IMG/VR virus record: IMGVR_UViG_3300034072_001378
Span: 35,659-99,658 of that record
Source: a virus
Direction: 5' to 3' (one strand)
Length of the DNA stretch: 64,000 nt
This document shows, one piece after another, positions 1-36,097 of the stretch. The stretch's first letter is position 1. Each line of letters begins with the position of its first letter. A program made the position numbers and the translations under genes. The notes beneath the pieces are model-generated. The model was given only the letters and a program-made list of their open reading frames with translations. It was not told where the DNA came from and did not search any database.

Positions 1-13
1 TTCTTTTGCTTTT

Positions 14-469
14 GTGTATGGTGAAGATGTTGATACTTTAAACATAAAACAAAGACCTAATTTCTATGAAGATACTAGAATACCTGAACAGTACAGAGTA
101 AAAAATATTGATTATATGTACATAAATATGGATAAAGGACACATTCAATCTGATGCTAGTAATGATTATTCCGAAGCTTCATTGAAAGAAACTTATGCCC
201 TTTCCAATGTTGTTCCAATGTACCCAAGAACAAATAGAATAAGTTATCTGCACATTGAAAAAAGAGAAAGAGAATTAGCAAAAGAATTTGGTACTATAAA
301 AGCACTAACATTAGTAAACTATACAACGTCTAAGATTAATGATATGTTTATACCAAAGGATTTTATAAAAGTATTTTTCACTCAAGGCTATAGTGAATGC
401 TATAAAATACCAAATGACAATAATTCATACAAAATAGAACAAATGAAAATTAGTTGTTCTGAAATTTAA
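14..469 (+). CDS. DNA/RNA non-specific endonuclease (NUC/EndoG-like His-Me finger), probably 5'-truncated by window edge
   Basis: DKGH (DRGH-like) motif followed by ETYALSNVVPM and N..SY..IE; frame is open upstream to the window start. Confidence 0.7.
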   Translation: MYGEDVDTLNIKQRPNFYEDTRIPEQYRVKNIDYMYINMDKGHIQSDASNDYSEASLKETYALSNVVPMYPRTNRISYLHIEKRERELAKEFGTIKALTLVNYTTSKINDMFIPKDFIKVFFTQGYSECYKIPNDNNSYKIEQMKISCSEI

Positions 470-474
470 TTTTT

Positions 475-502
475 AAAAGCTAGATATTTTATCTAGCTTT
501 TT
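475..502 (+). terminator. Rho-independent terminator (repeat family member)
   Basis: aaaagctagat-atttt-atctagc followed by a T run, directly after the ORF stop; same stem at 1305, 11216, 41594. Confidence 0.8.
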
Positions 503-607
503 AGTTTAGAAGACAAAATTTAAAATATTTTTTATCTTAAATTTTGTCTTTAAGTTAAATTTTTCTTTTAAATTGTTTATAAATAATATTAAAAAGGAAT
601 TTTTAAA

Positions 608-1306
608 ATGTATAATTTTAATATAAATGACAATCCCGAATATGATTTAAATGCTTCATTAATTGATGAAACTATAAATCTTTATGGTATTCCAGTAAAA
701 TTTTTAGTAACAACAAAATTAAATTCAGATGATAATATTTTTGGTGATTATAGTTCAATAAAAACAGACAACTCAAAAATATTTGAAATATATGCAATGC
801 CTGAAAACACTGAATCTTGGGATAGTGCTGGATATAATTTTTCTGAATTTGGTATGTTAAATTTGGATGCTGTTGCTGTTTTTGTTTCTAAAAATACAGT
901 AGAAAATATTATGGAATTGGATTTTAAACAAATGTACAACAATTTAGTAGTTATGCCAAATAATAAAGTAATGGAAGTAACCGATGTACAATTTGAAGTT
1001 CCTGGTGTAAATAATTTATTTACATTTAAGAATGCAAAGTCTGTTTATAAATTAACATTAAAACCTTATGCATTAAAATTAACTGATGAAATTAATAGAC
1101 AAGATATTTCAATTGAAGATGGTGAAGATTATAGCACATTAGATAATTATTTTGATGAATTACTTGATAGAAAAACTGCTGTTGATACCGAAATGGAAAT
1201 AAATCCTAGTGTAGATACTATTATTAAAAGTGATCCTATAGATATTGTTCAAAAGAAACCATTTATTAATAAAACAGAAGATAGTATTTTTGGCGAATTT
1301 AGTTAA
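608..1306 (+). CDS. gp14: neck/head-completion protein, T4 gp14-like
   Basis: IDETINLYGIPVKFL N-terminal motif and size fit gp14 family; TATAAATA late promoter at 578-585. Confidence 0.6.
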   Translation: MYNFNINDNPEYDLNASLIDETINLYGIPVKFLVTTKLNSDDNIFGDYSSIKTDNSKIFEIYAMPENTESWDSAGYNFSEFGMLNLDAVAVFVSKNTVENIMELDFKQMYNNLVVMPNNKVMEVTDVQFEVPGVNNLFTFKNAKSVYKLTLKPYALKLTDEINRQDISIEDGEDYSTLDNYFDELLDRKTAVDTEMEINPSVDTIIKSDPIDIVQKKPFINKTEDSIFGEFS

Positions 1307-1332
1307 AGCTAGATATTTTATCTAGCTTTTTT
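1305..1332 (+). terminator. Rho-independent terminator (repeat family member)
   Basis: aaagctagat-atttt-atctagc plus T run. Confidence 0.8.
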
Positions 1333-1405
1333 AGTTTAGAAAACTTATTTAAGTTCAAAAATTTCTTTAAAATGTTTATAAATAATATTAAAAGGAAATT
1401 TTAAA

Positions 1406-1984
1406 ATGAAAAATACATTTTTAGATTATGTCAGTAGTATTAATGAATCTTCTTCAACAATCGTTTATCACGGTGATGATTTCAACACAACTAAATTAGA
1501 ACCTAAATGGATGCTGCACAAAGATAGTAACAACCAAGAAGGCGTTGGAATATATTTTTCAATTAGACCTGAAACAGCAAAATCTTATGGGAAGAATATA
1601 GTTGCTGCTGAAATAAATCATAAAAATTTTATTGATAGTAGATCAGAACTAGGGAAAATAAATTCAAAGAAAATTGTAAATCTAATGAAGTATTTACACA
1701 GTTTAGATAATGAACCTCTTTGGTATCTTTTAACTGATTATGGGTTTGAAGTTTATGAACCTGAAGATGTTGAAGATTGGCATTTTTTAGAATTGCACAA
1801 GAAAATGAAAACAGAACATATCAGAAATTTTCAAATCGAATTGGTTCAAAAATTTAATACTGAAGATTTTGTTAAAGCATGGAATAAGTTTGTAAAAATA
1901 GATGGTACATTTCAAAAACAACCAAATGGAGATGTGTGGTATGCTATTATAAATACAGATATAAAAGTTAGTAAATATAATTAA
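1406..1984 (+). CDS. putative internal head protein with ADP-ribosyltransferase-like fold
   Basis: VYHG...EGVGIYFS...AKSYG motif pattern; N-terminal FLDYV..INES leader; late promoter at 1377-1384. Confidence 0.5.
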   Translation: MKNTFLDYVSSINESSSTIVYHGDDFNTTKLEPKWMLHKDSNNQEGVGIYFSIRPETAKSYGKNIVAAEINHKNFIDSRSELGKINSKKIVNLMKYLHSLDNEPLWYLLTDYGFEVYEPEDVEDWHFLELHKKMKTEHIRNFQIELVQKFNTEDFVKAWNKFVKIDGTFQKQPNGDVWYAIINTDIKVSKYN

Positions 1985-1985
1985 C

Positions 1986-2477
1986 TTACTTCAATTCTTT
2001 TTCTGTAAGAATTATGAATTTCATTCCTTTTTCTTTACAGAACTCTTCACAAGCTTTCCACTTTGCTGAATTCACAAGCCATGTTTGGTAAGCTTTCTGA
2101 TAATTTAAAATAGCCTTTTGAGTTTTCTTAGAAGGCTTTTTTGGTTCTACAGTTTCACCGCTACTTTTTATTTCTACTAAAAATTTTTGATTATTTTCAA
2201 ATTCAATAAACATATCAACAAAATATCTATGGATCTTTCCTGTGGTAGGTTTTAGATATCTAACTGCAAAAGGTTCAAGGCTCCACTTTTTAATGAATTT
2301 ATTCATATCGCAGTACTTTATTGCTTTTAATTCCAAACCTGACTTATAATTTATTTCTAAATTTTCACCATTTCTTCTTACAGATTTCATAACAGAATTA
2401 CTTTCATTTGTTTGCATAATGAATTTTTTAGTATTTAGTACAGTGTACCAACCTTGTTTAGCTGAATTATAAGCCAT
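1986..2477 (-). CDS. gp4: head completion nuclease, T4 gp4-like (TnsA-type endonuclease)
   Basis: YKSGLELK..YCD.N..I.KWSLE, HRYFVDM and LVEIK motifs, W.VN.AKW.A C-terminus. Confidence 0.85.
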   Translation of the reverse strand: MAYNSAKQGWYTVLNTKKFIMQTNESNSVMKSVRRNGENLEINYKSGLELKAIKYCDMNKFIKKWSLEPFAVRYLKPTTGKIHRYFVDMFIEFENNQKFLVEIKSSGETVEPKKPSKKTQKAILNYQKAYQTWLVNSAKWKACEEFCKEKGMKFIILTEKELK

Positions 2478-2505
2478 TATTTACTCCTAAAGTTCAAAAA
2501 ATCTT

Positions 2506-3201
2506 TTAAATTTTATTCTTAATTAACCAATACATTCCAATATATTTTCTTAATTTGTTATCAACAATAAAACCATTTCTTTCTAATTTTTCAATTATAT
2601 CTGATATTTTACCAGATGTATTATTTTTAACTTCTGAATAAGCATAAGCCATTTTCTCATAAACTGTATTATACAAATAATCATTATATATCTTTATATT
2701 TTTAAGTCTTAATTTATTCCATTCTTGCATAGATTCTTTTGTGTTTGTATTAAACAATTCTATTAATTTTTTCTCATTTGTATTTATTTGATTTACTATT
2801 TTTTCAGTTTGTTCAAAATAAGCATTTGAGTGTTTATGTTGAATTTTGTGTACCATTTCATGACCAATCATTGCTTCTATTTCGGGTAACTTATCATTTT
2901 TAGAATAATATACTGTTATTTGATCATTTTTCTTATCATAATGTCCACTCAATTTACTTTTATTGTCATATATGAATTTTATATTAATTTTTTTAAATTG
3001 TTTATTTAATTCATCTTCATCATATGTTTGTATTTTTATTTTTTCTGGTTCAATAACTGCTTCACACAAAAACATATTAAAATGCATAATATTATCATTG
3101 TGTGCATTTATTCTTGCTATCTCATTTTCAACTTCTATTAATTGAATAAAATATTTTCCGTTTTCTTCTTTTATTTTTAACCATTCTTTAAATGACATCA
3201 C
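2506..3201 (-). CDS. putative internal head protein with HEXXH zincin-like motif
   Basis: MMSFKEWL leader; IGHEMVHKIQ motif. Confidence 0.5.
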   Translation of the reverse strand: MMSFKEWLKIKEENGKYFIQLIEVENEIARINAHNDNIMHFNMFLCEAVIEPEKIKIQTYDEDELNKQFKKINIKFIYDNKSKLSGHYDKKNDQITVYYSKNDKLPEIEAMIGHEMVHKIQHKHSNAYFEQTEKIVNQINTNEKKLIELFNTNTKESMQEWNKLRLKNIKIYNDYLYNTVYEKMAYAYSEVKNNTSGKISDIIEKLERNGFIVDNKLRKYIGMYWLIKNKI

Positions 3202-3285
3202 TTTTATTCCTTTTTTAAATATTTATATTAAAAATTTTTTAAATTCAAATAGTTTAGAATATAAATAATTAAAAAAGGAATAAAA

Positions 3286-4761
3286 ATGGCAAATTTTTTA
3301 ACAGAAGTTCTAAAGCCTTTTCTTAAAAATGATAAGAAACCAGAGCTTTCTAGCCAAGTTGAACCACAAAATATAATAAATGACCTTGGTTCAGATTATT
3401 ATCATACATCAGGGAGTTTCTTTGATAGTACATCAAATTATTTAGGTAAATCAGAGCAAATTGATAATACATTCAGACAAGCAGAAAAGATTAAAAAATA
3501 TCGTTCACTAGCAACAATACCAGATGTAAATGATGGTTTAGATGAAATAACAAATGAAATTATTTTTTCTTTAGGTAAAGAACCACCAGTAAAAATTGAT
3601 ATAAATCAAGATAATAAACAACTTAAGGAAGCGATTGAAGAAAAATTTAAAGATATTCTTAAAAAGATGAATATTCGAAGAAATTTTTTTAGCATTGTAA
3701 AAAAATCATATATTGATGGTCAATTAAAAATTCACTTAGGATATAATGAAAAAACAAGAACAATTGATTCCATTAAAATGATCGACCCTTGTATGTTAGT
3801 ATATAACCCAGAAACAGAATTATATAGATATGTACAAGATAATTCTCAAATGTTCAGACAACAGGAAGAAATAACTTATTCAAGAGAAGAAATAGTTCAT
3901 AGTGATTTTGGTTTATATGAAAATGGTATTATTTTAAGTTATCTTGAATATGCTATAAAACCAGCAAATATGTTAAAAACATTAGAAGATTTACTTATTC
4001 CTATGAGATTTTCAAGAAGCATCTCAAGAAGAGTTTTCAATGTCGATATTGGGGACCTTCCGAATAAAAGAGGTCTTGAGGTTATGAATGAATATCAAAT
4101 GAAATTCAAATATAAAAAATTCTATAATACGGAAACTGGAGAAGTAACAAATCAACAACATATCACAAGTATGGTTGAAGATTATTGGTTTGCTAATAGA
4201 AGTGGTGGTAAAGGAACAACAGTTGAAACTATTGATGAAACTGGAAATCTTGGAGAACTTGGGGATATTTTATATTTTTATAAGAAATTATATAAAAGTA
4301 TGAAAATACCAATGTCTAGAATTTCAATGGATCCAGATTCAGATGGAACATTTAATTATGAAAGCACTGAAACATCAAAAGAGGATTTAAAATTCTTTAT
4401 GTTCATTAGTAGATGCAGAATTGTGTATTCTGAGGCTTTAAAAGAAATTTTAAAAAGAGAATGTATTTATTCTAAAATTATTAAAGATGAAAAAGAATGG
4501 GAGAGTATAGAAGATGATATCGATGTTTATTTTACAAATGATAATACGTTTATAGATAAAATGAATCTTGATAATTTCATTAAAAGGGTTGAAATATTTA
4601 CTGGTTTACAAGAACAACAGGGAAAATTATTTCCAGTCGAAAAAGTTCTTAAAGATATATTTAAAATGGATGATGAAGAAATTAAAGATAATTTTGAAGC
4701 TATTGAAAAAGAAAGATCAAATAAACTATATGCTAAATTTTATGAAACACAAGATGAATAA
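3286..4761 (+). CDS. gp20: portal vertex protein
   Basis: LEDLLIPMRFSRSISRRVFNVDIGDLP, MVEDYWF..RSGGKGT, YFYKKLYKSMKIPMSR motifs; late promoter 3260-3267. Confidence 0.95.
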   Translation: MANFLTEVLKPFLKNDKKPELSSQVEPQNIINDLGSDYYHTSGSFFDSTSNYLGKSEQIDNTFRQAEKIKKYRSLATIPDVNDGLDEITNEIIFSLGKEPPVKIDINQDNKQLKEAIEEKFKDILKKMNIRRNFFSIVKKSYIDGQLKIHLGYNEKTRTIDSIKMIDPCMLVYNPETELYRYVQDNSQMFRQQEEITYSREEIVHSDFGLYENGIILSYLEYAIKPANMLKTLEDLLIPMRFSRSISRRVFNVDIGDLPNKRGLEVMNEYQMKFKYKKFYNTETGEVTNQQHITSMVEDYWFANRSGGKGTTVETIDETGNLGELGDILYFYKKLYKSMKIPMSRISMDPDSDGTFNYESTETSKEDLKFFMFISRCRIVYSEALKEILKRECIYSKIIKDEKEWESIEDDIDVYFTNDNTFIDKMNLDNFIKRVEIFTGLQEQQGKLFPVEKVLKDIFKMDDEEIKDNFEAIEKERSNKLYAKFYETQDE

Positions 4762-4763
4762 CA

Positions 4764-5270
4764 ATGGGAGCATTTAGAGATTATTTAGAAAGTTTAGGTA
4801 AGTTAGAATACCTAAACGAAATTCACAGAACTGGCTCAAGTTCTTCTAGAGATGAATATTCAGGTGAAATGCATTTCAATAGATTAAAAGATAAGCTTAA
4901 ATTAATAAGATCAAATAATGATTATAATTTGTTTAAATTCAAAGATTATTTATTCTTAGTTAAAGATAATGAATATGTTGCTTATTTAGATGGAATAACT
5001 GATTATTTACTTTCTAAAAAAGCATTCTATATTTCTGTTATGCATTCTAAAGAAAGAGGTGCTATGGAGATTATTTACTCTTTGATGAAATCAGCTGGTT
5101 ATAAATATATTGTATCAGATATTCTTAATTCAGATGATGCAATTAAACATTTGGAAAAATCAATGAAGAAATATAAATACTTTGGAATTGATTATAAAGA
5201 TGAAATTGTAAAAGTTTCAGATGAAGAGCTATTAAATAACCCAGATTATAGAATAGTTTTTGAATTATAA
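4764..5270 (+). CDS. putative internal head protein, possible GNAT-like fold
   Basis: MGAFRDYLE...YLNE leader; V.HS..RG...IY..M...IVSD...S..A pattern. Confidence 0.45.
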   Translation: MGAFRDYLESLGKLEYLNEIHRTGSSSSRDEYSGEMHFNRLKDKLKLIRSNNDYNLFKFKDYLFLVKDNEYVAYLDGITDYLLSKKAFYISVMHSKERGAMEIIYSLMKSAGYKYIVSDILNSDDAIKHLEKSMKKYKYFGIDYKDEIVKVSDEELLNNPDYRIVFEL

Positions 5271-5292
5271 ATAATATAAAAAGGAGAATTAA

Positions 5293-5682
5293 ATGCAAAC
5301 ATTTAGAGAATGGTTAGCAGAAAAAGAGTTAAATGAAGCAAAAGACCAAGATATTATAAAATTAGATAATATGGGTGATTTTATAATCGATAGTTCCAGA
5401 GGAGCTGAACATTATAATACTAAATTACAAATATATAAGAAAGTTTTTGGAAAGACTAAAGTTGAAGAAGGTCATTGGTTTAAAATAATACGTTATAAAG
5501 GATCAGATGGAAAATTTCGTAAAGAAGATTGTGTTATTAGAGACTGGCTTGATGAAGACGCGGTAATCGTAAACAGTAAAGAAAGAAGTATTAGACCAAC
5601 GTTGTATGTAAGAAATAAAGGCGCATACGAAAATGGAGAATTCCCTCAAAAATATAAAGAATTCGAATTCCCAAGAAAATAA
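5293..5682 (+). CDS. putative internal head protein
   Basis: MQTFREWLAEKELNEA leader; aggag RBS; late promoter 5266-5273. Confidence 0.55.
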   Translation: MQTFREWLAEKELNEAKDQDIIKLDNMGDFIIDSSRGAEHYNTKLQIYKKVFGKTKVEEGHWFKIIRYKGSDGKFRKEDCVIRDWLDEDAVIVNSKERSIRPTLYVRNKGAYENGEFPQKYKEFEFPRK

Positions 5683-5809
5683 TTAGATTTAAATGAAGCT
5701 TCTAAATTAGATGTAAATTTTTTAAAAGAAAATACTTGGTATAAACCTAAAAAAACATATAAAATATTATTATAATACCTTTGTCATAACGGTTAGATCT
5801 AAATAATTA

Positions 5810-5915
5810 ATCTTCAGACCGAAATGTCTATAAACTACTAATTGAAGATATACATTATATCATTTAAATTCTGATTTAAGATATCAACTCCGAAATGAGT
5901 ATAAACTAATCTTAA
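5810..5915 (+). ncRNA. two tandem copies of an unnamed stem-loop motif (4-bp stem, CGAAAT loop, ATAAACTA) upstream of the sheath gene
   Basis: agac-cgaaat-gtct-ataaacta and actc-cgaaat-gagt-ataaacta, each inside an outer stem; third copy at 9206-9227. Confidence 0.45.
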
Positions 5916-6086
5916 AAAAATTTAGCTAAACTTTTTTGAAAAAGAACTAAAGCAGTACTAAATAGGTTCGTCCATTTAGTTTAATTAAGATTTCCAACTT
6001 AATTATAAATTGCAATGTTTTTCTGAGTGCAAAAGAACAAAGTTCTATGCATAAACAGAAAGTAAAGCTTAAAAAGGAGAATTAAA

Positions 6087-7514
6087 ATGGCAGAAATGTT
6101 GTCACCAGGCGTATATATCACGGAAATTGACGCAAGTCAAATCGTACCAACAGTTTCAAATTCAGTTGCAGTGTTCAGTGGGAATTTCCATCAGGGTCCT
6201 GTTAATAAGTATCAAATTATAACATCAGTAGATGAATTAATTACATATTATGGAAAACCTTCTAACACAAATTATAATGATTGGTATCAGGTTTACAATT
6301 ACCTACAATATTCTAATAAATTGCTAATATCAAGAGCTGCTAATACAGGTGGAACAAATACACCAATAAGTGGTGTTGTAACTTCAGAGGAAATCTTAGA
6401 AAACACAACAGATACATTTATTGTTGCAGAAACAACTGAAATAAAAGCAAATGATCTTATTAGTTTAGGCGACGATAACCTTAATTTTTACTTTGTAAAA
6501 TCAGTTACTACTGATTCATTGGCAGGAGAAACAACAATCGTTCTAGATAGACAAATCGAAACAGATTTTATTGCAGGAACAACAGTTAATTCTTATAAAG
6601 CACATATGAATGGTGTTGCAGAAGCTTTAAAAGAATCTTCAACAGCAGTTATAACAGATGATATGTACTACGGTAAATATTTAGTTATTGAAAATTCAGA
6701 TGATTATGAAATGAAAGAAACATCGTTAGCATTTGTTAACAACGATTCTAAAATCAAAATTATCGCAAAAAATCCAGGTAAATGGTCAGAAAAATTAGAA
6801 ATTGCAATTGCAAAACCTAGTGATTTTGGTGCAAGTAAAAAAGTATTTGATGGTATCTCTTTAGATGACCTTTATGAATACAGACCAACTGGTACTCAAG
6901 TAGGTATTGTTATAAGATATGAGGAAGAAATTAAAGAAATCTTTACAGTTGATTTTGATATGAACGCAAAAGATATTAATAACAAAAGTACTTATATTGA
7001 AACAGTTATTAATGGTTCAAGTTCTTACATTTATATTAAAGATAATGTAGATGTTACAGAAGATATTAAATCATATATCTTTGATGAAGAAGGAACAATT
7101 GAATTAGTACTTGGAAGAGACTCAGATATTCAAGCTGATGATTTATTAACAGCTTACGAAGTTTGGTCAAATAAAGAAGAAATTGAAATTGATATAATTA
7201 TCGCGAATGAGTTAGATAGCGGTGTAAGTGCGAAAAACCTTGCAGAAGCTAGAAAAGACTGTATAGCGTTTGTTGGAGCTGGGTATTCTGACACTGTTGG
7301 TAAAAAAAGTTCAGATGCGGTTGCTAAACTTATTGAATGGAGAACTACTGGTTCTTTAAATTTTAATAGTATGTTTGTTGCAGCATTCGCGAACTATAAG
7401 TACCAATATGATAGATACTCGGACAAGAACAGATGGGTAAACATCGCTGGCGATTGTGCCGGATTAAGGTCGGCAACAAATACAGACAGAGCTTCGTGGT
7501 GGGCAAGTGCAGGT
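6087..7514 (+). CDS. gp18: tail sheath protein, exon 1 of 6 (join 6087-7514, 7858-7923, 9406-9564, 9859-9974, 10273-10330, 10680-10775; 640 aa)
   Basis: LSPGVYITEID N-terminus, YQYDRYSDKNRWV...GDCAGL, ends WWASAG immediately before intron 1. Confidence 0.95.
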
Positions 7515-7857
7515 TAGAGATTTTCTAGGCCTGTTTATAAAATTAGAAATTTTATAATGGAATTCTTTTAATTGCTGGAACATCCTTAGAGTTGAATTAT
7601 AAGTTTGAAATTTATTTTAAATTTTAAACCCATGAACAAGATTCAAATTGGACAATCAGCAGCTAAGACATATATTAAATATGTAAAGTTCAGAGACTAT
7701 CCCAAAATGGGAGTACACTTATAGTTATAAAATTAAGTGGAAAAGGAGAACATCTTAAAAATTAAATGTTTAAGATGAAGATATAGTCCAATCTATATAG
7801 AAATATGTAGTTGTTTATAAACAACATATAAAGTAACGACTTATATGAAATATAATG
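7515..7857 (+). ncRNA. group I intron 1 (IA-like, no ORF) in tail sheath gene
   Basis: P1 gcaggU pairs with gcctgt (U-G at splice site); P aattgctggaa, Q aatcagcagc, R ttcagagacta, S aagatatagtc; ends in G. Confidence 0.92.
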
Positions 7858-7923
7858 CTAGAAAGAGGACAAGTTAAAAATGTAATTAAACTTGCTTTCA
7901 ATCCTGTACAGGCCATGAGAGAT
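7858..7923 (+). CDS. gp18: tail sheath exon 2 (LERGQVKNVIKLAFNPVQAMRD)
   Basis: continues the conserved W.S.AG-L.RG....KLA.NP....RD sheath motif. Confidence 0.93.
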
Positions 7924-9405
7924 TAAAAAAAATTATATAAATAAATTATATTTAATATAAGAAAGTCTCGGTAAAAAAGTAATTTTTTACAAAAATAAAT
8001 TTATCTAATTGCTGGAACATCCTTAGAGTTGAATTATAAGTTTTAATTTAAAAATTAGAACCCATGAACAAGATTCAAATTGGACAATCAGCAGCTAAGA
8101 ATTATTACATTTTTATATTAAAATTCGGAACTTTAATATAAGGAAAAATATATGAAACAAAAAATTAAACAATTAATAGAAAATTTTATACAAAATACCA
8201 ACAATATTGCTACTTTAAATAGTAGAACATTATTTGTTCGAGAAAATATGGAAGAAATTAAGAAATTAACTGATTTCTTACCAGAAAATTCTAAAGTAAA
8301 TGAAAGATTATATTTAATATATAATGAAATTTTTACTTTAGAAGAAATAAAATGTCCAATGTGTAATAACAATAAAAAATTTTATACATTTACAAGTGGA
8401 TATAATCTTTGTTGTTCTCGATCTTGCGCGACTAAATATCAACAAAACTTTTTAATTTCTAAAGAACAAAAAGAAATAATTTACAAAAAACGAACAGAAA
8501 ATAACCGTAAAAAACCAAAAGAAGTTTTAAGGGCTGAAGCAGACAAAAGAATAAAAACAACAATTGAAAGATATGGTGAGAATGCATTCTCACTTATAAG
8601 TAAAAAAGGTCATCAAACTAAATTAAAAAATGGTAATTATGTTGCGCCTTGGACAATTTTAAAAAATAATAACCCAATAAAATGGAAAGAAATGCATTTT
8701 AAAGCAGCTGAAACTATGAAAAATGACATAGATGAAAATGGTAATAATCATTATGATAGAGTTCATATAAAGAAATTAACAGTGTTAGATGAGAATGGAT
8801 TAAATAAATCAAAGAGTACATCTAAAACACTTAAGTAATATAGACGAGAACGGGAATAATTATTACGAAAGAAGAAATTTAAAGAACTATGAAACAGGTG
8901 TTTGGACTAAACCAGAAGACAAAACATTATTAGAACAATATAAAATAAAGGTTTAAAAGTTCATGTATAAATTTAAGGAAGAAATTAAACAATTAAAAAA
9001 TTTTGAATTAAGAGGTAGAACATCCGAAAATGGTTATCACTTGGATCATAAATTTTCCATTAAAGAAGGGTTTAACCAAAAGATTGATCCCGAAATAATT
9101 GGTCATATTTGTAATTTAGAAATGATTCCTGGTGAAATAAATCAATCAAAAATAGAAAATGCAGTATAGAATTAAACTCATTAATAAATGATATAAATAA
9201 TTACAACACCGAAAAGTGTATAAACTAAAATGTAATAATTAAAGTTCAACGACTATCACATAATGTGAGTACTGGGCAAGTGCCCGGGAAATGGTAGACA
9301 CCCTTTGTTCCGAAATATTAAAGGGTGAAGATATAGTCTAATCTATATAGAAATATATAGCAGTGAAAACGATTTAAGTTTAACGAGCTTAAATGAATAT
9401 AAATG
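7924..9405 (+). ncRNA. group I intron 2, carrying a degenerate HNH endonuclease ORF in the P6 loop region
   Basis: P1 gagaU pairs with agtctc (U-G); P/Q at 8007-8097, R gttcaacgacta ~9244, S aagatatagtc ~9329; ends in G at 9405. Confidence 0.92.
8152..9228 (+). pseudogene. intron-encoded HNH homing endonuclease, disrupted
   Basis: CPMC..CSRSC zinc motif, IDENGNN repeats, YHLDHKFS...IGHICNLEMIPGEINQSK HNH core; frameshift ~8810, in-frame TAA ~8953, second frameshift ~9155. Confidence 0.75.
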
Positions 9406-9564
9406 TTCTTATACAAAAACGGGTTAAATCCAATTGTAAGCTTTCCTGCTCAGGGTACTGTGGTATGGGGGCAAAAGGTGCTTTTAGATAAAGCAAGTTC
9501 TTTTGACCGTATAAATGTGCGAGGTCTTTTTAATACTTTAGAAAGATCATTAGCAAAAATGGCT
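9406..9564 (+). CDS. gp18: tail sheath exon 3 (FLYKNGLNPIV...DRINVRGLF...AKMA)
   Basis: LY..G.NP.V, WGQK.L, FDRINVR.LF sheath motifs. Confidence 0.95.
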
Positions 9565-9858
9565 AAAATATTTGGCCCTTTCAGAAGAGATTCTGAAATG
9601 AAAAACCTTTTAATTGCTGGGAACTCTAAGTCTTATTGAAAATAAGATATGACAATCAGCAGCCAAGGTTCAAATAGAAATTAATTTGAACAAGGTTCAA
9701 CGACTATCCAGAGATGGAGTACACTCAAGTGAGTGGAAATGGAGGTTACCTATAAAGGTAAAGATATAGTCTGAACTGTTTAGAAATAAACAGCTAATTT
9801 TAAAAATTTTATATTTTAAAATAGATTTAAGTTTAACGAGCTTAAATAAACATATTTG
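9565..9858 (+). ncRNA. group I intron 3 (no ORF)
   Basis: P1 ggcU/aaa pairs with tttggcc (U-G); P,Q,R,S elements present; ends in G at 9858. Confidence 0.92.
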
Positions 9859-9974
9859 AAGTATCAAGTAATGGAGTTTAACGACAACTTCACAAGAAAC
9901 AGGATTATAAGCATGATTAAGCCGTTCTTGTCTTCGGTACAGGCTGGAAGAGGTATAGCCGACTTCTTGGTGAT
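9859..9974 (+). CDS. gp18: tail sheath exon 4 (KYQVMEFNDNFTR...GRGIADFLV)
   Basis: EFND.FTR and RGI.DF.V sheath motifs; phase-2 junction AT|A gives Ile. Confidence 0.93.
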
Positions 9975-10272
9975 TAATCAATAGTCACCTTTTATTGGAA
10001 ACAATAAAATAAAAAAGTTCTTTAATTGCTGGGAACTCTAAGTCTTATTGAAAATAAGATATGACAATCAGCAGCCAAGGTTCAATATTTTATATTTGAA
10101 CAAGGTTCAACGACTATCCAGAGATGGAGTACACTCAAGTGAGTGGAAATGGGAACTAACCTTTGTCTCAAACTTTTAATTTAAAAGAAAGGTTAAAGAT
10201 ATAGTCTAGACTATATAGAAATATATAGCAGTGAAAACGGTTATAGATTAACGACCTATAATGAATAAATCG
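9975..10272 (+). ncRNA. group I intron 4 (no ORF)
   Basis: P1 ggtgaU pairs with gtcacc (U-G); P,Q,R,S elements present; ends in G at 10272. Confidence 0.92.
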
Positions 10273-10330
10273 ATGTGATGAATCTAATAATACTCCAGAT
10301 GTAATCTCGAGAAATCAATTAGTAGTAGAT
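10273..10330 (+). CDS. gp18: tail sheath exon 5 (CDESNNTPDVISRNQLVVD)
   Basis: CD..NNTP.VI.RN sheath motif. Confidence 0.93.
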
Positions 10331-10679
10331 GAAATTTGTCTACTATAAAGAACTCTAATTGCTGGAACATCCTTAGAGTCTAAATATAGATTCAAGTTTA
10401 AAAGAAATATTTTGTTTATAAACAAATAATATGCTTTTTAAATTTGAATTGATGAACAAGTTTAGAATTGGACAATCAGCAGCCAAGGTTCAAATGAAAA
10501 ATATTGAACAAGGTTCAACGACTATCCCATAACGGGAGTACACTCAAGTGAGTGGAAATGGGTTCTATTTTATCTACTCTAACAAATGATAAAATAAAGA
10601 TATAGTCTAGTCTTTATGGAAACATAAAGCAGTTTAATTAAAACGCATTTAATAGTAACATATTAAATGGAATATAACG
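10331..10679 (+). ncRNA. group I intron 5 (no ORF)
   Basis: P1 tagtagaU pairs with gtctacta (U-G); P,Q,R,S elements present; ends in G at 10679. Confidence 0.92.
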
Positions 10680-10775
10680 GTTTTCATAAAACCAAATTAT
10701 GTTGCAGAATTTGTTCATCTTAAATTTACTAACGCAGGGACAAATAGTTTTGCGTCAGTAATTGGTGGGGCATAA
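10680..10775 (+). CDS. gp18: tail sheath exon 6 (VFIKPNYVAEFVHLKFTNAGTNSFASVIGGA-stop)
   Basis: IKP...E.I.L.F C-terminal sheath motif ending at TAA. Confidence 0.93.
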   Translation, partial: VFIKPNYVAEFVHLKFTNAGTNSFASVIGGA

Positions 10776-10866: not shown

Positions 10867-10899
10867 AGTTTTCTAAAACATGAATTAGAGTTAATTAAA

Positions 10900-10923
10900 C
10901 TTTAATAATCTTTAGTATATAAT
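10900..10923 (+). promoter_or_regulatory. early (host sigma70-type) promoter repeat
   Basis: ctttaataatctttagtatataat, 2 mismatches from the CTTTAATATTCTTTTGTATATAAT consensus. Confidence 0.65.
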
Positions 10924-10941
10924 AAAATAAAAAGGATAAAA

Positions 10942-11169
10942 ATGGATACAATAATTGGATGGTTTAAAAGTATAGTAGGGTTTGTTTTTGGAACATTATT
11001 TTTGAGTTTTATAAGTGGATACTTAATCGGAAATTATTATGCAACAAAAGCAGCAATACAAGATAAAAATTTAATTACACCACACAATATAATTTCAATG
11101 ACGTTATTAAGGGCTTATGAAGTTCCTGGAGCAGAAAAATATACATATAAAAATTATGATAAAAAATAA
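10942..11169 (+). CDS. hypothetical membrane protein
   Basis: hydrophobic N-terminal helix; RBS and early promoter upstream. Confidence 0.6.
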   Translation: MDTIIGWFKSIVGFVFGTLFLSFISGYLIGNYYATKAAIQDKNLITPHNIISMTLLRAYEVPGAEKYTYKNYDKK

Positions 11170-35548: not shown

Positions 35549-36097
35549 ATGACATTTAACCCACAAAATATTTTAGGAGAAACAAGAGTAGAAACAAATT
35601 ATTCTTTTAATTGTACTTTAGAATTAGAGAATATAAGCACTCCAACAGAAACAATAACAGAAGAAATTGAAAGTATTGAAATAACACCAAATTCGGATTA
35701 TGTAAATTATATAATAACAAATAATATTATTAATTTTTATGGTAATATTCCTTTAGATGTTTTTGATTTATACAAGTTTAAATATGTTGATAAAGGGAGT
35801 TCAGATAAAATAATGACACCTATTATAACAAATATGTATGGTGTCCCAGATAGAAAAGATTTATTTGAAGTTACACCTGATACTAGACAATCCGTGCAAG
35901 TACCGAATGATTCTTTTATAAATGTTAAAGTTCAAATTAAAAGAACAATAACAGAAATAAGTACCCCACCAGCAGAACCAACTGATCCAATTATTGAATA
36001 TATAGATTATGAGCACAATTATAAAATAACAGCAACGCAAGATATGGATTTATTAAAAAATTGGATAAAAGATTATTTTGAAAATAGATATAACTAA
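35549..36097 (+). CDS. hypothetical baseplate-associated protein
   Basis: ORF between gp5 and PAAR gene. Confidence 0.55.
   Translation: MTFNPQNILGETRVETNYSFNCTLELENISTPTETITEEIESIEITPNSDYVNYIITNNIINFYGNIPLDVFDLYKFKYVDKGSSDKIMTPIITNMYGVPDRKDLFEVTPDTRQSVQVPNDSFINVKVQIKRTITEISTPPAEPTDPIIEYIDYEHNYKITATQDMDLLKNWIKDYFENRYN

Follow-up and report, generated by a model that had tools for sequence, protein, structure and literature searches.

Five introns in the tail-sheath gene

We analysed a stretch of 64,000 nucleotides (nt) of viral DNA (the window; positions 35,659 to 99,658 of IMG/VR record IMGVR_UViG_3300034072_001378), taken from a 127-kb record that represents a T4-like phage. Among named phages, the Vibrio phages Va1 and phiKT1024 come closest, with 61-63% amino acid identity over the first sheath exon. 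Within the window, the gp18 tail-sheath gene (6087-10775) is interrupted by five IA2 group I introns, numbered I1 to I5 in the following. Splice junctions were set by aligning the spliced protein to the uninterrupted sheath protein of phage Va1. The spliced product of 640 amino acids (aa) is colinear with the latter, its frame is open, and none of the five junctions shows a gap. Coordinates and individual properties are provided in Table 1.

All five introns carry a private P1 guide that pairs with the respective 5' exon, a U.G pair at the splice site and G as last base. That is, guide pairing with a different exon for each intron, as stated in a preliminary description of this DNA, is found throughout. 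Intron assignment is based on Rfam family RF00028 with a threshold of 50 bits. The 3' half of I2 reaches only 44.8 bits because an open reading frame (ORF) splits its P6, while its 5' half is 90% identical to I1. In every Rfam alignment, the interval from P7 to P3' contains an insertion of 31-43 nt with two short inverted repeats, i.e., P7.1 and P7.2; these extra hairpins are a hallmark of subclass IA2 among the Michel-Westhof classes. By these sequence features, the five introns are IA2-like members of one family and predicted to be self-splicing. A genome-level search of the phage's own record listed three of the five, and no intron core beyond the sheath gene turned up when its 127 kb were scanned for motifs.

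Shared blocks and segment-wise mosaic

The preliminary description had listed identical blocks between neighbouring introns, and all of its coordinates and lengths hold when the five introns are compared again. I1 and I2 share runs of 38 nt (7569/8006) and 42 nt (7627/8059), I3 and I4 share runs of 65 nt (9609/10021) and 59 nt (9684/10094), and I5 shares 24-26 nt with I1/I2 (10354-10379) as well as 27-28 nt with I3/I4 (10535-10562). Further blocks that had been missed connect I2 with I4 (29 nt; 9343/10211) and I2 with I3 (24 nt; 9371/9824). Around P9, I2 and I4 are 86% alike across 80 nt. Identity over 59-65 nt between AT-rich sequences of 300 nt is far beyond chance.

To localize these similarities, we cut the introns at the universally conserved core elements and compared the resulting segments with those of 54 other introns of the family. 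I3 and I4 are identical in P3-P5 and in P7-P7.2-P3' (1.00 each), while the values for P8, P9 and P1-P2 are 0.38, 0.76 and 0.60, respectively. That is, no relationship between the two is left in P1, P2 and P8, and they differ clearly in P9, where I4 shows an identity of 0.95 with I2. For I1 and I2, an identity of 0.90 in P3-P5 stands against 0.61 in P7-P7.2. Similarity within a single pair spans 0.38 to 1.00 and is not the even level of whole-element duplicates.

The nearest relative differs from segment to segment and switches at conserved core elements, where block ends necessarily fall. I4 matches I3 from P3 to P3' and I2 in J8/7-P7'-P9. I2 is I1-like up to P4', I4-like in P9 and I3-like in the terminal hairpin. 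In I1, I4 and I5, the intron alignment shows varying stems of this hairpin with both sides changed and the loop conserved. The P4'-P6-J6/7 segment of I5 has local identities of 0.85-0.91 compared to at most 0.75 externally.

The preliminary description had proposed a recombination test, for which we used a single-breakpoint max-chi-square statistic with permutation. The signal is strongest for I4 (as I3 x I2; max-chi2 37.5, permutation p=0.0005), and I2 as I1 x I4 also yields p=0.0005. The weakest signal is found for I5, i.e., p=0.20 as I1 x I3 and p=0.024 as I2 x I4. In this test, support for recombination is strong for I4 and I2 and weak for the intron in which it had been suspected.

Table 1. 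Features of the gp18 locus in window positions, and introns in related sheath loci by insertion site in window protein coordinates (q).
Feature	Position	Strand	Details
gp18 tail-sheath exon 1, aa 1-476	6087..7514	+	62-68% identical to and colinear with Va1 sheath protein
Intron I1, 343 nt, no ORF	7515..7857	+	RF00028 72.5 bits; junction SAG/LERGQ; P1 guide GGCCTG 7528-7533; long P5 extension; enlarged P7.2
P3-P5-P4' module, I1 copy	7569..7668	+	I2 copy 8006-8100; 90% overall
Exon 2, 22 aa	7858..7923	+	Va1 protein alignment
Intron I2, 1482 nt, broken endonuclease-like ORF within P6	7924..9405	+	junction MRD/FLYK; P1 guide GTCTC 7965-7969
Decayed ORF within I2	8152..9169	+	pieces 8152-8838, 8804-8956 (frame-shifted), 8963-9169
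J8/7-P7'-P9 module, I2 copy	9328..9371	+	I4 copy 10196-10239; 95% identical, 29-nt run
Terminal hairpin of I2	9371..9394	+	identical in I3 (9824-9847); intron alignment
Exon 3, 53 aa	9406..9564	+	Va1 protein alignment
Intron I3, 294 nt, no ORF	9565..9858	+	RF00028 108 bits; junction KMA/KYQV; P1 guide GGCC 9574-9577
P3-to-P3' module, I3 copy	9609..9742	+	I4 copy 10021-10152; differs in P6 loop only
Exon 4	9859..9974	+	Va1 protein alignment
Intron I4, 298 nt, no ORF	9975..10272	+	RF00028 97 bits; P1 guide AGTCACC 9983-9989
Exon 5	10273..10330	+	Va1 protein alignment
Intron I5, 349 nt, no ORF	10331..10679	+	RF00028 61 bits; junction VVD/VFIK; P1 guide GTCTACTA 10338-10345; without P2; longest P5 extension
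P4'-P6-J6/7 of I5	10472..10526	+	P6 stem GGTTCAA / TTGAAC common to I3, I4 and I5 only; exact IMG/VR scan
Exon 6 and stop	10680..10775	+	Va1 protein alignment
Introns of L164, metagenome contig			11 introns; ~88% protein identity over part present
Introns of L031	q367, q512, q557
Introns of L197	q367, q531, q609
Introns of L058	q476, q551		q476: 3' end only, contig cut
Introns of L046	q471
Introns of L106	q531
Introns of L167	q498, q531

Blocks private to the neighbouring introns

Exact scans of the blocks covered 2.9 million IMG/VR contigs. They found the P4-P5 block of I3/I4 and the P6 stem of I3/I4/I5 in no other intron, and no exact match to the 24-nt core of the 42-nt I1/I2 block. Exact matches to the P4-P5 and P6 blocks elsewhere in IMG/VR (L125-L129) are chance matches in coding DNA, not introns, and were discarded. 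The private blocks reside in elements that vary freely across the family; their identity between neighbours therefore points to recent local transfer.

The preliminary description had further read I5 as a chimera with the 5' half of the I1/I2 type and the 3' half of the I3/I4 type. The two signature blocks behind this reading belong to the family consensus. The 27-nt block of type 3/4 (P7.1-P7.2-P3') is found exactly in 27 other IMG/VR stretches, on many unrelated contigs, and the 24-nt block of type 1/2 in 5 other IMG/VR contigs. One sheath intron of L031 holds both, and L046 holds near-exact versions of both. Since the blocks are common in the family, their combination in I5 is an ordinary arrangement and no evidence of a local cross. 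In P3-P5, I5 is no closer to I1/I2 (0.61-0.66) than to an unrelated intron of L043 (0.68). Together with the weak breakpoint test, this leaves the chimera unsupported beyond the P6 stem, which alone links I5 privately to I3/I4. This link and an I5 with I4-type P6 in a sister strain (see below) argue for a certain amount of exchange.

Named phages reach at most ~76% identity over at most half of an intron (distant blastn; core-only matches), and a megablast search of the whole gene against them returned only a 33-nt match in P7'-P9 from Flavobacterium phages. P2 of I3 resembles P2 of L164 intron 1, and P9 of I5 is 0.95 identical to P9 of an intron in L065.

Site occupancy in related phages

A comparison of intron occupancy in related phages had also been proposed. 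We collected 160 sheath loci from IMG/VR and metagenomes with exon 3 as bait plus nine with exon 1, and mapped their insertions by tblastn. In most relatives (including Va1, L130 and L132) the sheath gene is uninterrupted. The site of I1 is also occupied in L164 (intron 4) and L058 (3' end only), that of I2 in L167, that of I3 in L058, and that of I5 in L164 (intron 9) and L197 (intron 4). For the I4 site, the tblastn mapping yields no intron in any other of the ~170 sheath loci. The comparison sets I4 apart, and the other four sites recur exactly.

Across the clade, ~18 distinct insertion sites are found in the C-terminal half of gp18. Some are just 7-18 nt apart, namely L164 intron 5 and I2, L046 and I1, and L164 intron 8 and I3. 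We roughly estimate a chance near 1e-4 that four of five sites coincide with ~17 used ones among ~270 U-ending positions.

Same-site introns share sequence in parts. I3 and the L058 intron at its site have a near-identical P1, loop included, as well as related P2 and P3. Between P4' and P9, I1 and L164 intron 4 agree at ~80%, and they have the P8 stems, J6/7, a P7' variant and the 3' end in common. The tail of I2 is closest to those of L164 intron 5 and L167, the tail of I5 to that of L164 intron 9.

In the close relative L164 (metagenome contig JACCED012106166.1, positions 1-5100), ~1 kb of coding sequence is interrupted by 11 group I introns, with exons down to 13-27 nt. When this gene is spliced and aligned to the window protein, the only gap is one residue long and lies at the intron 8 junction. 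No phage gene is known to us that has more introns. Entire modules recur unchanged among the L164 introns, which carry AATTGTCTGG where others have AATTGCTGG, plus a common tail. The groupings differ by module, i.e., introns {4,5,7} go together in P3-P5, {1,5,7} in P6 and {1,4,5,8,10,11} in P9. As judged from these alignments, copies within a genome are, module by module, more alike than same-site copies between genomes, which is the signature of concerted evolution by conversion.

Some observations concern the wider family. Among the 5' splice sites of I1-I5 and the 11 introns of L164, 12/16 follow GAT (seven) or GGT (five), often as a complete codon for Asp or Gly; targets may be chosen with a short guide-sequence preference, or plain codon usage may be behind the pattern. 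The nine sheath loci found with exon 1 show no Rfam match at the gathering threshold. Just upstream of an otherwise uninterrupted sheath gene, L006 holds an ORF-bearing intron of the family (5005-5917), probably in the neighbouring gene, which the motif scan found and the Rfam gathering-threshold search missed. The IMG/VR contigs L025 (3900-4710 and 10510-11040), L037 and L026 have clusters in which two to four such introns follow each other over a few hundred bases, and multi-intron genes may be common in this family.

Strain variants in public sequencing runs

The stretch is present in public groundwater and wastewater runs of several studies, none of them an RNA run. We compared Logan contigs from four runs (X1, X4, X5 and X7), of which X4 and X5 seem to be duplicate entries of a single data set. 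The X1 contigs cover every unique segment with 0 differences and break at the repeated blocks. The strain in the other runs, which are from wastewater, departs from the window at 9 of 1288 nt in exon 1 (99.3% identical) and has I1 as well as an I2 with a 108-nt in-frame deletion.

In this strain (X4/X5/X7), a contig leaves exon 3 after 9507 into a different intron start, near the q531 site that is used in L167, L197 and L106. A second contig joins exon 4 no earlier than 9878, after an intron 3' part unlike that of I3, and its adjoining exon is ~5% diverged. A further contig follows I5 to 10470 and continues with an I4-type P6 for 61 nt (joint 10470->10063). The overlap at this joint is 23 nt and shorter than the assembly word of the Logan contigs, which we take to be 31 nt; the joint is therefore treated as read-supported. 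Several further joints (7669->10513, 10331->7991 and 10038->8082) were left unused given fewer than 30 letters on the shorter side or low depth, and they may come from other organisms. Taken together, the strain appears to differ from the window in its intron complement, with an additional intron from about 9507. We see the strain contigs as good indications, though not as proof, that sites are turning over and modules are being exchanged.

Downstream of the gene, each of the four runs shows a 5-10-fold jump in contig depth within 10868-11048, and loose ends abound at 10891-10933. This AT-rich intergenic region in front of the next gene is possibly a repeated late-promoter or intergenic element.

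Endonuclease-like reading frames

No intact homing endonuclease gene is found in the five introns. I1, I3, I4 and I5 are without ORF, and that of I2 is split into three by a frameshift and an in-frame TAA (8954-8956), the TAA being ahead of the last piece. Only this last piece matches phrog_5104 (2e-18), and it shares 65% identity with the C-terminal end of the ORF in L164 intron 7, which is intact (319 aa). A Pfam search of the intron ORFs returned no match. The proteins encoded by intron ORFs of the clade belong to phrog_5104, with weaker matches to homing and HNH endonuclease families.

Within the I2 ORF, the X4/X5/X7 strain lacks 108 nt in frame between 14-nt direct repeats (window 8626-8735), and the TAA reads TAT. 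That is, the ORF is caught at differing stages of decay among strains.

The 3' part of several sheath introns in other phages contains endonuclease-like ORFs in antisense orientation relative to the host gene, i.e., L164:2480-3436 (-), L046:2107-2949 (-), L031:1898-2530 (+) and L058:2-497 (-); phrog_5104 membership is confirmed for those of L164 and L046. The same family is sense-oriented within P6 in I2 and in the L058 intron. The endonuclease-like ORF seems to move independently of the ribozyme.

A probable single lineage with exchange between neighbours

The locus combines a mosaic, private blocks, sites shared with other phages and differences between strains. We consider it probable that one intron lineage at recurrent sites is subject to ongoing gene conversion between neighbouring cores. 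According to this reading, a single IA2 lineage would have colonised many positions in the C-terminal half of gp18 within a clade of T4-like phages, and I1, I2, I3 and I5 would most likely have been inherited or gained by homing, not created in the present phage. Modules (P3-P5, P6, P7-P7.2-P3', P8, P7'-P9 and the terminal hairpin) would have been copied repeatedly between neighbouring introns by T4-type homologous recombination or gene conversion. Homology would be provided by the universally conserved core elements of 9-15 nt (AATTGCTGG, ACAATCAGCAGC, GTTCAACGACTATC and AAGATATAGTC) as well as the longer shared modules, and recombination may be stimulated by breaks from the intron-borne endonuclease-like proteins of the clade. 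Such copying would leave 100%-identical private blocks beside unrelated segments. A crossover between direct repeats would cost an essential gene part of its exon sequence, so that the events expected to last are non-crossover conversions only. How the introns recombine and which way each transfer went is what we infer.

Several points weigh against lineage sharing and conversion. The margins of same-site introns are small when strictly intronic sequence is considered (exon bases excluded), P1-P2 of I1 is unrelated to that of L164 intron 4, and a same-site intron comes first or second in similarity only for P1-P2 of I3 and for the tails of I2 and I5. Recurrent sites could instead arise by parallel insertions if target preference is strong. 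In a structured RNA, constraint varies along the molecule and confounds breakpoint tests, which is why we put more weight on the outside comparisons. Finally, the strain evidence consists of short contigs of mixed communities and is not read as sequence.

I4 takes a special role as a mosaic of I3 and I2 at a unique site and is the sole candidate for a locally generated copy. It may have arisen locally (by neighbour-templated insertion or reverse splicing) or stem from an unsampled donor. More tentatively, the introns could form an actively turning-over swarm, mostly ORF-less, in which sites are gained and lost between ~99% identical strains, new positions are reached a few bases off existing ones, and I4 is a fresh product of intragenomic transposition. 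The latter would proceed via reverse splicing or via repair of endonuclease breaks templated by a neighbouring intron.

The preliminary description went further and took all five introns for recent duplicates instead of five homing invasions. In such a model, the introns would have multiplied within this genome, by reverse splicing or ectopic transposition of a neighbour, with P1 re-adapted to the new exon and I5 as a recombinant of both types. We regard this as unlikely. It captures correctly that the introns are of one family with recent exchange between neighbours, and recombination between cores fits the mosaic. The private identical blocks, the lack of ORFs in four of five introns and the fact that the clade clearly reaches new sites 7-18 nt apart are in line with it as well. 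But four of the five sites are occupied in other phages, and between the supposed duplicates, P2 and P8 show no relationship and P9 differs. Similarity along pairs jumps between 100% and ~40-60%, unlike what simple duplication followed by drift would leave. The I5 part is weak: its signature blocks have 5 and 27 exact counterparts elsewhere in IMG/VR, with both present in one L031 intron, its P3-P5 is no closer to I1/I2 than to unrelated introns, and its breakpoint p-values are 0.20 and 0.024. I4 combines the strongest mosaic, built of I3 and I2 parts, with the only unique site, and the idea of local proliferation may therefore hold for I4 alone.

The opposite extreme, five independent homing invasions from a diverse external pool with similarities due to the conserved core or very similar donors, appears still more improbable. 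It would account for sites common to other phages, for endonuclease-like ORFs being common in introns of the clade, and for modules shared across genomes at different sites (P2 of I3 and L164 intron 1; P9 of I5 and L065). However, among 2.9 million contigs, the blocks in the family-variable P5 loop and P6 stem are found only in the neighbours, named phages offer no more than ~76% identity over up to half of an intron, and nearest neighbours are incongruent within one gene.

An assembly artefact, i.e., false identity from collapsed or mis-joined repeats, is highly improbable: the record is metagenome-derived and short-word contigs break exactly at the repeated blocks, but X1 contigs match all unique inter-block segments with 0 differences, runs from several studies hold the stretch, and the exon order is colinear with the uninterrupted homologue with an open spliced frame of 640 aa.

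Relation to known systems

The closest parallel to conversion between neighbouring cores comes from phage T4, for which Bryk and Belfort reportedly described in 1990 (in Nature) domain shuffling between the td, nrdB and sunY introns in the laboratory. In both cases, IA2 introns of a T4-type phage are involved, which recombine in T4 and would recombine here via short conserved core elements to give chimeras. The T4 introns reside in different genes, and the laboratory events were reportedly crossovers that deleted the intervening DNA. The partners studied here are 300-1500 bp apart within one essential gene, and the events appear to be non-crossover conversions that are natural and repeated. 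To our knowledge, domain exchange between group I introns is otherwise known only from these laboratory crosses of T4, and natural spread of such introns to new sites has rarely been caught in progress.

Gene conversion is known to drive concerted evolution of dispersed repeats, e.g., rRNA operons. As there, copies within a genome are more alike than copies at the same position across genomes. Homogenisation of the sheath introns differs in being modular and incomplete, and each unit is a ribozyme that has to retain its own guide.

Homing spreads introns among T-even-like phages (Sandegren & Sjoberg 2004; review PMC2993671), and for T4-related genomes the review names only a handful of introns, one per gene, in nucleotide-metabolism or polymerase genes. 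The introns described here are of the same subclass, use fixed sites shared among related phages and show decaying endonuclease ORFs (cf. I2), but they form a mostly ORF-less swarm in a late structural gene. Several related group I introns inside one phage gene are also described for orf142 of Staphylococcus phage Twort, which has three (Landthaler & Shub, PNAS 1999, as listed among the references of PMC6669764). This compares to five in the window and eleven in L164. Full-text searches of the literature turned up neither multi-intron sheath genes nor module-level mosaicism among phage introns. For Twort orf142, we know of no report of such mosaicism or of identical private blocks.

Implications

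Gene callers fragment this essential structural gene, such that sheath-based phylogenies and annotations in the clade are wrong unless the introns are removed first. The gene, its relative with 11 introns and the strain variants from wastewater and groundwater together provide a natural series in which site gain, site loss and module conversion can be told apart and given rates. If the introns indeed form an actively turning-over swarm, this would be genuine intragenomic transposition of group I introns in a virus.

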